A DNA stretch of 64,000 nt from an uncultured Gammaproteobacteria bacterium (lineage in GTDB: Bacteria; Patescibacteriota; Microgenomatia; PFEM01; JAHIFH01), in contig CAYFXA010000001.1 of the NCBI GenBank assembly GCA_964347135.1, forward strand, positions 7,563 through 71,562, in the 5' to 3' direction. Under the pieces are notes generated by a model, which made no database searches, was not told the origin of the DNA, and saw only the letters and a program-made list of their open reading frames with translations. The translations under genes and the position numbers were made by a program. Position 1 is the stretch's first letter; each line of letters starts with the position of its first letter. Shown here in pieces: positions 26,011-33,443 of the stretch.

Positions 26011-26651
26011 GCTTTTTTACCTGAAAAAGTTTCTTTCAATTTCTCAATACTTTCTTCCATCAAAACCAACTGGTCATGACTCAAAACTTGATAAGTATTA
26101 AGTTGATTTGCTTGGGCAAGTTCCACTCTTGCTAAATTTCTACCTGCTCGAATAACATTTTCCAAAACACTTGGTAAAACCAACAGGACTTTTTTCTTTT
26201 CTTTTAATGGCAAACCCGCCATGGTTTTAGCCATTTCTTTGGTTTTTGGCTCAATCTTGGCTAAACCTTTGATGGCGACGACTTCTTTTTCTTTCAACTT
26301 GCTCGTCAAAGCAGAGAAAAGAGCTTTTTTCTTCATTGCTTTGCTCATTTTGAGTTTATAATTTTCCTTCCCTGTTGGCCCATGGGCTCGACCCCCACCA
26401 ACAAAAATCGGAGCATAGCGGTCGCCATGTCGAGCTCGACCCGTTCCTTTTTGACGCCAAATTTTTCTTCTTGAACCCCTAATCTCGGCTCGGGTCTTGG
26501 TTTTAGCCTTAGCCTTTCTTTGATTGGCTAAGTAAACCCTGACTGCTTGAGCCATAAGCTGCTCATTCACCGGAGCCGCAAAAATCTCTTTAGGCAAATT
26601 AATTCGCCCTGACTTTCTGCCCGTGATGGTGTACAAATCTGCTTTAGGCAT
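26007..26651 (-). CDS. rplD: 50S ribosomal protein L4
   Basis: L4 family. Confidence 0.9.
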   Translation of the reverse strand: MPKADLYTITGRKSGRINLPKEIFAAPVNEQLMAQAVRVYLANQRKAKAKTKTRAEIRGSRRKIWRQKGTGRARHGDRYAPIFVGGGRAHGPTGKENYKLKMSKAMKKKALFSALTSKLKEKEVVAIKGLAKIEPKTKEMAKTMAGLPLKEKKKVLLVLPSVLENVIRAGRNLARVELAQANQLNTYQVLSHDQLVLMEESIEKLKETFSGKKA

Positions 26652-27498
26652 TTTCCTCCTTAGGGGCTTCTTCAGCCGGTTTTTCTTCTTTTTTCTCGGT
26701 TGGCTTTGCTTCTTTGCCTGGTTCAGGCTTTTCCTCTGCTGTTTCCGCTGCTTTCAAAGCTTCTTTGGCTTCTTTTTCTCGTCGTAAACGCTCAGCTCGT
26801 TGTTCTTCGGTTTCTTCGATTTTTTTCTCTCCTTTTTTAAGTAAAGGCACAAACCGTTTAACTTTGCCTGTTTTGATAATGGTTAAAAAACCATTGATCG
26901 CTCCTGGCACTAAGCCTTTTACAAGCAATTCATCTTTTTTTTCATCAATTCCCATTACCGTTAAACCCAAAACCGTTACTTTATTTCCCCCAGCTCGACC
27001 CGCCATTTTTTTACCTTTTCGAACTCGCCCAGGTGTGGTTCCTTGACCAATTGAGCCTGGAGCTCGTTCACGGTCAGACTGGCCATGAGTCCGAGGACCA
27101 CCTTTAAATCCCCAGCGCTTAACTACGCCGGTAAAGCCCTTGCCTTTTGCCCAACCAGTTACTTTGACTTCATCTCCTGGCTGAAAAATGTCAGCAACCT
27201 TAATTTGGTCGCCAACTTTAAGCCTATCTGCTGGTTTTTCGAGCCTAATTTCGCCTAAAAAGCGAGGAGCTTTTTTTAGCTTAGCTCCTCGAAGATGTCC
27301 TTGTAATTGTTTGCTTACCTTAGTCATTTTTTTCTCTCCCCAACCAATTTGAATTGCATTATAGCCATCTTTCTCTTGCTTCCGAATATGAACCACGTAA
27401 CAAGGTCCGGTTTTGATTCTGGTAACCGGAACTCGCCCACCATCTTGAGTGAACCTTTGAACAGTTTTACCTTTTGTGCCTAAAATAGCGTTTAACAT
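26644..27498 (-). CDS. rplC: 50S ribosomal protein L3 with about 70-aa Lys/Glu-rich C-terminal extension
   Basis: Start at MLNAILGTKGKT (27498); the longer track ORF would begin inside the terminator hairpin. The C-terminal KKGEKKIEETEEQRAERLRREKEAKEALKAAETAEEKPEPGKEAKPTEKKEEKPAEEAPKEENA is not found in typical L3. Confidence 0.85.
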   Translation of the reverse strand: MLNAILGTKGKTVQRFTQDGGRVPVTRIKTGPCYVVHIRKQEKDGYNAIQIGWGEKKMTKVSKQLQGHLRGAKLKKAPRFLGEIRLEKPADRLKVGDQIKVADIFQPGDEVKVTGWAKGKGFTGVVKRWGFKGGPRTHGQSDRERAPGSIGQGTTPGRVRKGKKMAGRAGGNKVTVLGLTVMGIDEKKDELLVKGLVPGAINGFLTIIKTGKVKRFVPLLKKGEKKIEETEEQRAERLRREKEAKEALKAAETAEEKPEPGKEAKPTEKKEEKPAEEAPKEENA

Positions 27499-27512
27499 TT
27501 TTTCCACTAAAA

Positions 27513-27531
27513 AGAGTGCCGGAGGCACTCT
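27513..27531 (-). terminator. terminator/attenuator hairpin in the rplC leader (AGAGTGCC-ucc-GGCACUCU followed by UUUU)
   Basis: 8-bp perfect stem with a 3-nt loop followed by a U-tract on the minus strand. It sits 10-15 nt upstream of the rplC ATG and about 60 nt downstream of a consensus promoter. Confidence 0.45.
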
Positions 27532-27598
27532 TAGCAGTTACTCCCTAAATTAACTCAATTTTTTCAATAGGTGTTGAACCTCACCTCCATTAGAGATA

Positions 27599-27627
27599 AT
27601 TATAGGAAAATTGAAGAAAAAATGCAA
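27599..27627 (-). promoter_or_regulatory. sigma70-type promoter TTGCAT-17-TATAAT driving rplC and the downstream r-protein operon
   Basis: Minus strand has TTGCAT (top 27622-27627), an exact 17-nt spacer, and TATAAT (top 27599-27604). Confidence 0.5.
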
Positions 27628-27667
27628 ATTGATTCCCTCGTGGACGAAGTTAGAACTATTTCAATCC

Positions 27668-28090
27668 CTAACCACCTGATTTTGAGGTAACTGGCGGGTT
27701 TTGAAACATCTTGACTGCGGCTTTGAACTTAAAAGCAATATTCTCTTCTTTGGGATTTGAGTAGCATTTTCTCACCCAAGTAAGTAAATTGTGTACGTTC
27801 CCTTTATTGTCTTTAATTTGAATTTCATCGACCTCTTTACCCTTAAAAATTACGTTAAATTCAAAATTTGGAAACTTCTTTTGCCACATTTTCCCTAAAT
27901 AAACTGCGAGTCCGATCATTGCTTTAGACTGATATGAGTCATCCGTACCACTATCTTTTAAAGAGGCAACCCAAGCTTGTACATTCTCAATACTCTCATC
28001 AGAATAATCCAAAGCTAAAACTGGGTCATTTTTTATAATATCGATATATTTTTCCCCAATCTCAATTATCTGTTTGGTTTTATCATCCAT
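27668..28090 (-). CDS. hypothetical protein inserted between rpsJ and rplC
   Basis: 140-aa ORF MDDKTKQIIEIGEKYIDII...; acidic N-terminal half; no motif recognised. Confidence 0.5.
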   Translation of the reverse strand: MDDKTKQIIEIGEKYIDIIKNDPVLALDYSDESIENVQAWVASLKDSGTDDSYQSKAMIGLAVYLGKMWQKKFPNFEFNVIFKGKEVDEIQIKDNKGNVHNLLTWVRKCYSNPKEENIAFKFKAAVKMFQNPPVTSKSGG

Positions 28091-28100
28091 AATTTTTTTG

Positions 28101-28130
28101 ATTATCTCTCAAAATTATGTTTAAAATCAA
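28101..28130 (-). promoter_or_regulatory. weak candidate promoter TTGATT-18-GATAAT upstream of the inserted hypothetical gene
   Basis: Minus strand has TTGATT (top 28125-28130), an 18-nt spacer, and GATAAT (top 28101-28106), then 10 nt to the ATG with no SD. Confidence 0.25.
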
Positions 28131-28174
28131 GAGACAATTTTAGTAAGCTTGCCCCAAGGGCAAAACTTAAACCG

Positions 28175-28483
28175 CTACATCTTAATTTCAATATCCACCC
28201 CAGCAGGAAGCTCAAGGTGCATGAGGGAGTCAATTGTTTTGCTCGTGGGCTCAAGAATATCAATTAGCCTTTTGTGGGTGAGAATTTGAAAGTGTTCTCG
28301 AGCGTCTTTGTCTGTGTGAGGACTAGTGGTGACGGTGATTAATTTTCTGTGGGTAGGAAGAGGCACGGGACCAACTACCTTGGCACCTGTGGCTAAGGCT
28401 GTTTCTAAGATTTTTTCGCAACTCTCATCGATGACTCGATGATCGTACGCTTTTAAACGTACTCTTATTCTGCCTTTGGGCAT
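28175..28483 (-). CDS. rpsJ: 30S ribosomal protein S10
   Basis: [21 protein letters not shown]... canonical S10. Confidence 0.9.
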
Positions 28484-28489
28484 TTTCTC

Positions 28490-29680
28490 TTAAGCAATGA
28501 TTTTGCTAATTACTCCCGCGCCAACGGTATGTCCACCTTCACGGATAGCAAAACGGAGGCCATCCTCCATGGCAACCGGCTGAATGAGTTTAACGGTCAT
28601 TTTGGCATTATCCCCAGGCATAACCATCTCCACTCCTTTAGGCAGAGTTACTTCACCGGTTACATCAGTGGTTCGGATATAGAATTGGGGTTTATAACCA
28701 CTAAAGAAGGGAGTGTGACGACCACCTTCCTCTTTGGTCAAAATGTAAACCTCGGCCTCAAACTCCTGATGAGGCTTAATCGTGCCAGGTTTAGATAAAA
28801 CTTGACCCCGCTCAACATCTTTTTTTTCAATTCCTCGAAGGAGAATGCCAATATTATCACCCGCTACTCCTTCATCAAGAATCTTGCGGAACATCTCCAC
28901 TCCCGTAACCACCGTCTTTTGAGTGTCACGCAAACCAACGATTTCCACTTCTTCACTGACTTTGACTTTGCCCCGCTCGACTCTTCCGGTTACCACGGTT
29001 CCTCGACCCCTGATTGAAAACACATCTTCAATAGGCATCAAAAATGGTTTATCTAATGGCCGTTTAGGCGTGGGGATGGTTTCATCAACCGCTTTCATTA
29101 GTTCGAGAATGGCTTTCTTGGACTCCTCATCGCCTTCAAGGGCTTTTGTAGCTGAACCACGAATAATCGGAATTTTGTCACCAGGAAATTTATACTTGGT
29201 CAAAAGTTCTCGGACTTCCATCTCAACCAAGTCAAGCATCTCTTTATCTTTAACCAGGTCGGTTTTGTTCAGAAAAACAACCATGGCTGGTACATCAACT
29301 TGACGAGCTAAAAGAATGTGCTCTCGTGTTTGGGGCATGGGTCCGTCATCAGCCGCCACCACAAGAATAGCACCGTCCATTTGGGCTGCCCCTGTAATCA
29401 TGTTTTTGATGTAGTCTTTGTGACCAGGACAATCAATGTGGGCGTAGTGACGGTTTTCGGTTTCGTATTCAATGTGAGAAATAGAAATTGTTAAACCACG
29501 CTCTTTTTCTTCGGGAGCGTTGTCAATCTCTTCGAATTTAACAAACTTTGTTCCCGTCTTTGCCTCTTCTAAAGCTTTGGTGATGGCTGAGGTTAGAGTG
29601 GTTTTACCGTGGTCAACGTGACCAATTGTCCCAATATTAATGTGGGGTTTTTTTCTTTCAAATTTTGCCTTCGCTGCCAT
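28490..29680 (-). CDS. tuf: elongation factor Tu
   Basis: [20 protein letters not shown]-motifs; 396 aa. Confidence 0.95.
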
Positions 29681-32360: not shown

Positions 32361-32837
32361 TTACCACCGGAAATGGGCAAATGCCTTATTGGCTTCGGCG
32401 ATTTTATGGACTTCTTCTTTTTTGGCAACGGCGCCACCCTGCTTGTTGGCAGCATCCATTAGTTCGGCGGCTAACTTTTCGTAAAAGTGATGATATTCTT
32501 TATTGGAGCGTGCTTGGGCTGCTTGAATGAGCCAACGAATGGCCAATGACTCCCGCCTATCACCTTTAACCGGCATCGGTACCTGATAAGATGCTCCACC
32601 AACTCTTCGAGGACGAACTTCCATTTTCGGCTTAATGTTTTCCAAAGCTTTTTGAAAAATTTCTAGGGGGTTTTCTTTAGTCTTTTCCTCAACCAGATTA
32701 AAGGCATTATAAACGTGTTTTTGGGCAACCGTTTTTTTGCCTTGGCGCATCACTCGATTAATTAGCCGCGCTACAATCCGGCTTTGATAAACCTCATCAG
32801 CGGCAATAACCCTTTTGGGTGCTCTTTTACCCCTCAT
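32361..32837 (-). CDS. rpsG: 30S ribosomal protein S7
   Basis: Start at [10 protein letters not shown] (32837); S7 family. Confidence 0.9.
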
Positions 32838-33327
32838 CTCCCTCTCCTTTTGTCTCTTCTTTTTCTTCAGGTTTCTCTTCACCAGCTTCTTCACCTGGAC
32901 CAGTCACTTGGGCAACAACGCCGCCCTTTCGGGTGCCGTATTTAGAACGAGCCTTTTTCCGCCCGGTAACGCCGGCCGTATCAAATCTTCCCCGAACAAC
33001 GTGATATTTTACTCCTGGCAAATCCTTAACTCGCCCACCCCGAACCAAAACCACCGCGTGTTCAGCCAGGTTATGTCCTTCACCCGGGATATAGGCAGTG
33101 ACTTCTTTTTTATTAGAAAGTCGAACCCGAGCCACTTTTCTTAAAGCTGAATTGGGCTTTTTAGGCGGCATGGTCTTGACATGAAGAACCACTCCTCGCT
33201 TAAAAGGACTCATCGTTTCTGTCATCCGGCGGTCTTTGGCATTAAAAGTTTTCCGCAAAGCCGCGGCCTTTATTTTTTTCCTGGTTTTCTTCCTGCCCTT
33301 ACGGACAAGTTGACTGATTCTTGGCAT
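32827..33327 (-). CDS. rpsL: 30S ribosomal protein S12 (with acidic C-terminal extension)
   Basis: [12 protein letters not shown]...[11 protein letters not shown]; about 30 extra acidic C-terminal residues ([24 protein letters not shown]). Confidence 0.9.
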
Positions 33328-33354: not shown

Positions 33355-33443
33355 AGGTTCTGAGCGAAGCTCAGGTTCTTATTTTACCAAATTTGAGCTC
33401 ATTTCTCAAAGAGAAATTAGGTTCTCGCGAAGCGAGGTTCTTA
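33355..33443 (-). repeat. structured rpoC-rpsL intergenic region: two copies of an AGGTTCT-hairpin-GGTTCTTA motif flanking a third hairpin
   Basis: Copy 1 is CTGAGC-gaa-GCTCAG (33360-33374). Copy 2 is CTCGC-gaa-GCGAG (33424-33436), overlapping the rpoC stop. Both are flanked by GGTTCT direct repeats. The middle hairpin is ATTTCTC-aaa-GAGAAAT (33401-33417). Confidence 0.5.
33381..33409 (-). promoter_or_regulatory. candidate str-operon promoter TTGAGA-17-TAAAAT embedded in the hairpin region
   Basis: Minus strand has TTGAGA (top 33404-33409, inside the middle hairpin), a 17-nt spacer, and TAAAAT (top 33381-33386). Copy-1 hairpin would form the 5' end of the rpsL transcript. Confidence 0.4.

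Follow-up and report, generated by a model that had tools for sequence, protein, structure and literature searches.

In an uncultivated Microgenomates bacterium the genes for the ribosomal proteins S10 (rpsJ) and L3 (rplC) lie apart in the stretch of DNA analyzed here, 64 kb of contig CAYFXA010000001.1 (hereafter the window), which raises the question of what drives rplC and the long cluster of ribosomal protein (r-protein) genes that it heads. An earlier note on this DNA had described rpsJ after tuf, followed by a gene of 140 amino acids (ORF140, an open reading frame), a promoter, a hairpin and then rplC, and we located all of these, together with the flanking genes, on the minus strand. The rplC ATG lies at 27498, 1 nucleotide (nt) below the lower coordinate of 27499 that the note had given. 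Our analysis points to a module of promoter, leader and terminator, specific to the Microgenomates/Patescibacteria clade, that is probably a transcription attenuator of the main r-protein operon, with ORF140 as an unrelated accessory gene. The observations that carry this reading are the conservation of the module, the geometry of its promoter, a hairpin with a U-tract, and two alternative pairings of the leader with a distinctive pattern of substitutions.

To see how far the module extends beyond the window, L3 searches of genome and metagenome collections were used to gather 54 loci with L3 identities of ~36% to 91%, from relatives named as Patescibacteria or Microgenomates. A leader profile built from three leaders was run with nhmmer against the fetched loci, and the promoter-leader-hairpin unit was found directly upstream of rplC in 54 of 54 (E 1e-10 to 5e-47, 39 distinct sequences). 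Seven further loci, reached via more distant L3 proteins, show the same pattern. On average, two sequences agree at 65% of positions in the leader, at 24% upstream of the promoter (-120 to -46), and at 51% over the 240 nt starting 30 nt downstream of the leader, which are mostly rplC coding sequence. The leader, ~90 nt long, also has a more stable fold than its shuffles (z -3.05). We excluded that it is a coding sequence, since each of the three sense frames is interrupted by stops and its indels are not multiples of 3; the leader is therefore non-coding. The promoter-leader-terminator layout that the earlier note had likened to an attenuation-controlled r-protein leader is a real cis-element of that type, conserved well above background.

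The promoter lies at 27627-27599 on the minus strand and is of the sigma-70 type, with a -35 hexamer TTGCAT (27627-27622), a 17-nt spacer and a -10 hexamer TATAAT (27604-27599). A consensus scanner read it in a shifted register as TTTGCA-18-TATAAT, with a score of 10/12. It had been called near-consensus, which is true of the -10 and not of the -35, where 3/6 positions agree with TTGACA. Among 42 distinct relatives TATAAT is kept in 39, the 17-nt spacer in 38 and a -35 of the form TTGC[AT][AT] in 37, and in 37 the AUG of AAUGGAGG follows 8 nt behind the -10. The sequence of the spacer and all DNA upstream of the promoter are variable among the relatives. The hexamers, a spacer within 16-18 nt and the positional conservation are those expected of a sigma-70-type promoter, and because the upstream genes in the relatives are often on the opposite strand, rplC must there be driven by this promoter.

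At the other end of the leader lies the hairpin AAGAGUGCC-UCC-GGCACUCUU with its U-run (27532-27509, minus strand), the left arm occupying 27532-27524, the loop 27523-27521 and the right arm 27520-27512. The earlier note was right about the hairpin, the U-tract and their distance of about 10 nt from the rplC ATG, while its count of 8 base pairs (bp) is one short: the stem (27532-27512) has 9 bp, including 5 G-C pairs, at -13.1 kcal/mol, and the U-run has 5 U (27513-27509). A G+C-rich stem, a short loop and an immediate U-run are what defines an intrinsic terminator, and the hairpin has all three; a terminator scanner missed it, apparently since its extension of the stem took in two U of the tail. 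The 17-nt core of the hairpin is unique within the window, which rules out a repeated element or a generic terminator of this genome. That it merely terminates the str operon was ruled out as well, as the hairpin is kept even in loci whose upstream genes run in the other direction. Across 30 distinct sequences 93% of the stem cells are paired, with 2 pairs changed on both sides, and each of the 43 sequences examined has U5-7 after the stem. The lower stem shows compensatory changes in L058 (AAAAAAGUGCC / GGCACUUUUUU), L060 (AAGGUGCC / GGCACCUU) and L062 (ACAGCC / GGCUGU). Still more distant Microgenomates carry a hairpin and U-run immediately before rplC with unrelated stem sequences, the pattern predicted for a functional terminator.

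The predicted 5′ end of the transcript, 8 nt past the -10, begins with region 1, AAUGGAGGUGA (27591-27581, minus strand), which is invariant or nearly so in the 39 distinct leaders. Region 1 is a perfect extended Shine-Dalgarno (SD) sequence that lacks a start codon at the distance needed for initiation, and GGAGGTGA is the real SD of two other genes in the window. In the window region 1 can form 6 bp with the terminator's left arm and apex (GGAGGU:GCCUCC, -9.8 kcal/mol, chance p 0.015-0.03). Part of region 1 is also taken up by a second hairpin, P1, AGGUG-(8 nt)-CACCU (27586-27569, minus strand; -5.9 kcal/mol). The leaders fall into two groups, and RNAalifold on 11 sequences of group 1, to which the window belongs, recovered P1 with 5 pairs, one of which changes from U-A to U-G. 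In each group P1 shares bases with region 1, although its strands differ (AGGUG/CACCU in group 1 and AGCUC/GAGUU in group 2), and it is therefore a candidate anti-antiterminator. The linker from P1 to the terminator is about 35 nt long and A/U-rich. Group 1 alone has another potential partner for the CUCC apex, the mid-leader GGGAG (27545-27541, minus strand), in which GGAG is invariant within the group and pairs with CCUCC in RNA truncated before the right arm.

In group 2 the alternative pairing is longer. Here the opening 17 nt, UGGAGGUGAAGCUCUUU, can base-pair with all of the left arm and the apex, AAGAGUGCCUCC, to give an antiterminator of 6+6 bp interrupted by a 3-nt bulge, with energies of -14 to -15.4 kcal/mol and z-scores of -2.5 to -3.8 relative to shuffled leaders. 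Over 27 sequences 96.3% of the cells in the antiterminator are paired, compared with 40-55% in slid registers, which is on par with the 95.5% for P1 and the terminator. All substitutions are transitions that keep pairing with both alternative partners: left-arm A/G with U16 and U85, G/A at column 14 with U72 and U27, and C/U at column 75 with G8 and G80. Such dual-compatible transitions are the pattern to be expected if each nucleotide serves two helices. One clear covariation was found in L058, where the left arm changes from G to A and the right arm and region 1 each answer with C to U. When the RNAs were truncated before the right arm, the helix between the 5′ strand and the left arm formed in about 30 of 39 sequences. 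The leader therefore has the conserved upstream strand, mutually exclusive with the terminator, that marks an attenuator, in the window over 6 bp only. A covariance model was then built from group 2 alone, leaving out the window and the whole of group 1, and it gave one significant match in 64 kb, the window's own leader (55.1 bits, E 1.5e-9), the runner-up in the window reaching 15 bits. The model also recovered all group-1 loci, L058 and L060, and 0/3 control loci.

These pairings suggest an RNA with two states, as the 5′ element can pair with the terminator's left arm and apex. In the first state P1 and the terminator would form, and transcription would stop before rplC. In the second, the long-range helix between the 5′ element and the left arm would form in their place, and RNA polymerase would read through into L3-L4-L23-L2 and the genes behind them. 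Candidates for an effector that chooses between the states may be an r-protein of the operon, such as L4, or a 30S subunit at the orphan SD.

Several points weigh against an attenuator. The transcription start, termination, its regulation and read-through are all predictions from sequence. No double-sided changes of the antiterminator occur within either group, so that its support comes from conservation and one distant lineage, and the figure for slid registers is an inflated control because the structure was derived from the same sequences. In the window's group the antiterminator is just its upper half, the 6 bp given above (-9.8 kcal/mol, chance p 0.015-0.03). At equilibrium the terminator is favoured in the window (-20.2 vs -12.7 kcal/mol) and also in group 2 (-23.3 vs -16.7 kcal/mol), and therefore read-through would need kinetics or a factor. 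The GGAGG element is missing from L059 and L062-L065. Finally, the hairpin and even its loop hardly vary, which might alternatively mark the binding site of a sequence-specific protein.

The 5′ end of the leader can also be read as the start of a leader peptide. An AUG at +2 opens a mini-ORF of 6-8 codons (MEVRFNTY followed by a stop in the window), whose translation would cover region 1 and P1 and thereby select the terminator or the antiterminator, and an AUG 8 nt past the -10 with an ORF of 5-8 codons is present in all sequences, distant ones included. The peptide is, however, conserved only as MEV and is frame-shifted in L039 (MEGEALF and a stop), AU-rich sequence will yield short ORFs by chance, and the lack of an SD upstream of the AUG would require leaderless initiation. 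We consider control by this peptide very improbable. The group-2 leaders allow a further reading, in which GCUCUUUUUGAG acts as a BoxA that recruits NusB-S10, makes RNA polymerase resistant to the terminator and couples S10 levels to the L3 operon. Its GCUCUUU equals the first 7 positions of the gamma-proteobacterial consensus GYTCTTTAANA (PMC5725501). Against this, the segment is missing in the window and all of group 1, which have CACCUAUUGAAA in its place, and the group-2 variants CUCUUCUAGAG extend a hairpin and preserve no linear box. BoxA was rejected on this ground, since what should be a linear conserved box is absent in one group and a hairpin arm in the other, and we give this reading hardly any credence.

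The SD-like character of region 1 bears on two other explanations. In Bacillus, STAB-SD elements such as those of cryIIIA and hbs are SD-like sequences near the 5′ end that are expected to bind the 30S subunit (PMC4113751, PMC5737220), and these 5′ elements bind ribosomes and block 5′-exonuclease (PMC5737220, PMC4113751). Region 1 resembles them in being an SD-like sequence close to the 5′ end and remote from start codons. On this reading there would be no regulator at all: the 5′ element and the hairpin would stabilise a very long operon mRNA, in the manner of a STAB-SD, or direct its processing, with the U-run incidental or a cause of constitutive partial termination only. The leader of the str operon in the window likewise begins with a stable 5′ hairpin, and rplC has no canonical SD of its own. 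A stabiliser would leave unexplained, however, why U5-7 stands right after the stem in every lineage, even where the stems differ, and why the 17 nt at the 5′ end match the whole left arm as its complement, with substitutions restricted to those that suit both partners. Unlike a STAB-SD, region 1 is also complementary to the downstream terminator arm, which makes a role in a structural switch plausible, and we regard simple stabilisation as improbable.

Alternatively, the leader could sense ribosomes. A free 30S subunit, or a 70S ribosome at the 5′-proximal AUG, would occupy the orphan SD and block the antiterminator, leading to termination. In favour of this, GGAGGUGA equals the strongest real SDs of the genome, would pair at -15.2 kcal/mol with a canonical 16S tail, and lacks a start codon at the distance needed for initiation. 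It is also the same strand that forms the antiterminator, and the CCUCC at the terminator apex resembles an anti-SD. We know of no precedent for a ribosome-sensing attenuator, and the case is built by inference throughout. In addition, L059, L062 and L064 keep the C-rich apex without a 5′ GGAGG, and P1 of group 1 already hides AGGUG. Orphan-SD leaders like that of rplC were looked for before rpsL and rpoB in the window and none was seen. Ribosome sensing seems to us unlikely as the effector mechanism.

Immediately after the U-run stands UAGUG (27509-27505, minus strand), of which UAGU (27509-27506) can pair with ACUG (27538-27535) and so extend the hairpin in read-through RNA. In RNAalifold of group 1, pair 61-90 of this extending helix is UA in 4 sequences, CG in 3 and UG in 3, a set of compensatory changes, though overall the helix flanking the terminator (X-Y) has weak support (p ~0.02 in an alignment-free permutation test). 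The triplet right after the U-run (27507-27505, and the same site in L002-L062) is always GUG, AUG or UUG and never CUG. In some loci this NUG is in frame with rplC, and elsewhere it opens an ORF of 2-5 codons whose end is the rplC AUG. A coupling mini-ORF is one possible reading, and the 3′ strand of the terminator-flanking helix a simpler one.

The extended hairpin is of interest for autogenous control, in which excess L4 or another protein encoded downstream would bind the hairpin or P1, stabilise the terminator and possibly block translation. This would not be a different architecture; it would supply a specific effector for the same attenuator. The analogy with L4 drawn in the earlier note is reasonable as far as the architecture goes, with a terminator just before the first cistron and a hairpin upstream of it. 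The gene for L4, rplD, is the second gene of the rplC unit, and the hairpin and its loop are almost invariant while the L3 proteins share ~55-60% identity, as would suit recognition by a sequence-specific protein. In read-through RNA the hairpin can reach across the GUG and weak-SD region before the AUG (p ~0.02), and this would permit dual control of transcription and translation as described for L4 (PMC3616713). Attenuation that depends on L20 provides a Gram-positive precedent (PMC1865079). Conversely, distant relatives keep the hairpin and U-run and not the sequence, as a structural terminator with no fixed protein site would. Furthermore, a search of 27300-28600 against Rfam with E up to 10 returned merely chance snoRNA and potC matches far below threshold, so the leader resembles no r-protein leader family there. 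We hold L4-type control to be possible, though doubtful.

The comparison with described systems sets the rplC leader apart from each of them. The L4-responsive S10 leader of E. coli exerts dual transcriptional and translational control and is restricted to Gammaproteobacteria (PMC3616713). Both leaders are untranslated, precede an S10-type cluster, have a terminator with a U-run shortly before the first cistron and an upstream hairpin, and share the potential for transcriptional and translational control (PMC3616713). The E. coli leader, however, precedes rpsJ and has 172 nt with five hairpins, whereas the leader described here precedes rplC and has ~90 nt with two hairpins. The rplC leader also has an explicit SD-like 5′ antiterminator strand and, having no Rfam match, no similarity to the E. 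coli leader in sequence or structure. An S10 leader of the E. coli type was rejected by location, as the element lies downstream of rpsJ and seven relatives have no rpsJ upstream. In Bacillus subtilis, infC-rpmI-rplT is controlled by an L20-dependent switch between terminator and antiterminator, with a single promoter and control of elongation over the whole operon (PMC1865079). It is likewise an r-protein leader with terminator and antiterminator conformations, but it belongs to another operon, has 200 nt, binds L20 on a domain that mimics rRNA and has no sequence similarity to the rplC leader. The survey of r-protein leaders by Eckert and Weinberg (2020) has a single candidate upstream of rplC-rplD-rplW-rplB, an L4 motif of Archaeoglobi (PMC7247131). 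That candidate is archaeal and lacks the bacterial terminator-based design, and Rfam, where the motif is expected, gave the rplC leader no match. At the gathering threshold Rfam 15 returned a tRNA alone for the whole window, with no r-protein leader family and no rRNA. With regard to rRNA mimicry, blastn of the leader against E. coli genomes gave no match.

Given that the module is found in every locus, we asked how it relates to the gap between S10 and L3. The upstream context was classifiable in 44 of the 54 loci, the other 10 having too little upstream sequence. The rpsJ stop abuts the -35 box in 13 loci (L002, for example), 0.5-1.5 kb are inserted between S10 and the rplC promoter in 24, many with genes on the opposite strand, and 7 have no rpsJ within 1-2.9 kb upstream. 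The earlier note had treated contiguity of S10 and L3 as the norm, which does not hold in this clade, with insertions of 0.5-1.5 kb in 24 of the 44 and no upstream S10 in 7. Neither was the element created or relocated by an inserted gene, because the same module is present in L002, L005, L009 and L046, where S10 directly abuts it. Since the module is found upstream of rplC whatever intervenes, it belongs to rplC and, as an ancestral element of the clade, predates ORF140. We interpret the S10-L3 junction in this clade as the border between two transcription units, at which insertions or breaks recur, with S10 belonging to the str unit and rplC heading a unit of its own. In group 2 (L015-L055) the gap is mostly filled by one or two syntenic genes on the opposite strand, whose proteins begin with a transmembrane helix, continue with a Pro/Thr-rich linker and end in a conserved domain (GGAYWLAAKT...VYDGQ.QP.C).

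In the window the gap holds ORF140 (28090-27668, minus strand), between rpsJ and the rplC promoter. The split is not an assembly artefact, as the order S10-ORF140-L3 is repeated on a second, Logan-assembled contig (L001). The earlier note had proposed comparing synteny for a lineage-wide S10-[gene]-L3 order, and this comparison went the other way: ORF140 is missing from all other S10-L3 loci compared. Even the closest relative, L006 (88% L3 identity), has two different ORFs at the ORF140 site. About 30 nt right upstream of the -35 box (AGTTCTAAC..TCCACGAGGG) are common to the window (27631-27660) and L006 (2835-2862), which suggests a shared insertion boundary or a cassette exchange. ORF140 has a GC content of 0.33, compared with 0.42-0.48 in the flanking ribosomal genes, and gave no match in Pfam, NCBIfam, PADLOC or PHROGs. 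An exhaustive HMMER search did find a small family of 16 representatives with conserved motifs. Two homologues have usable context, both in unrelated neighbourhoods, and a third, on a 692-nt contig, is uninformative. ORF140 was accordingly rejected as a conserved partner of the junction, and because its homologues sit in unrelated neighbourhoods it is an accessory gene outside the regulatory module. It is lineage-specific and one of many unrelated insertions at the S10-L3 junction.

Upstream of ORF140, rpsJ (28483-28175, minus strand; Pfam Ribosomal_S10, E 1.4e-33) is the last gene of an rpsL-rpsG-fusA-tuf-rpsJ unit, with tuf at 29680-28490 on the same strand as its upstream neighbour. A position of rpsJ downstream of tuf is a common bacterial arrangement and no oddity. 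The S10 proteins of the window and L002 are 100% identical. Just 3′ of the rpsJ stop, a 7-bp hairpin without a U-tract, UUUGCCC-UUG-GGGCAAG (28164-28148, minus strand), was read from the sequence; it was not among the predictions of the terminator scan and is at best a weak terminator or 3′ stabiliser. The str operon has a second insertion in the rpsG/fusA gap, an ORF of 116 amino acids (32299-31949, minus strand) with no Pfam match, followed by a terminator-like hairpin (31908-31889) with U6, ~37 nt before the fusA ATG. The rpoC-rpsL gap (33360-33437, minus strand) contains two near-identical UUCG-tetraloop hairpins GAACCUNNGCUUCGCNNAGAACC around a promoter-like TTGAGA-17-TAAAAT, which may be a 3′-end hairpin of rpoC and a 5′-stabilising hairpin of the str operon. 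The S12 protein has an acidic C-terminal tail (32827-32900, minus strand) that is missing in typical bacterial homologues.

Downstream of the leader, rplC (27498-26644, minus strand; Pfam Ribosomal_L3) heads an L3-L4-L23-L2-S19-L22-S3... cluster. Its start is the ATG at 27498-27496 (MLNAILG...), 10 nt past the U-run, and this differs from the public gene call P0017 (294 amino acids), which begins L3 at GTG 27528, within the leader hairpin. An N-terminal extension of L3 from this GTG was rejected, as L002, L005 and L007 each interrupt this frame and the stretch itself has the properties of a hairpin. Because the frame from GTG 27528 is not kept, ATG 27498 is the real start of L3 and the annotated MPPALFLVEK an artefact. 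At its other end L3 has a Lys/Glu-rich C-terminal extension of ~80 amino acids (26644-26890, minus strand), which is missing in typical bacterial homologues.

No r-protein leader of the Candidate Phyla Radiation (CPR) is described in Rfam or in the full-text literature that we searched, and to our knowledge regulation of the S10/spc/alpha cluster outside Gammaproteobacteria is largely unknown. We think it rather probable that the rplC leader is a previously undescribed terminator/antiterminator leader of an r-protein operon, in a phylum without a described one. Promoter, switch and terminator fit in about 135 bp, so synthesis and in-vitro study are possible without cultivation. That the "universal" S10-L3 linkage is a transcriptional boundary in Microgenomates bears on operon prediction, on the use of syntenic phylogenetic markers and on the annotation of gene starts. 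If ribosome sensing were true, about 25 r-protein genes would receive feedback from the concentration of free ribosomes with no dedicated repressor protein, which would be economical for a genome-reduced CPR bacterium and would represent a new principle of ribosome homeostasis.

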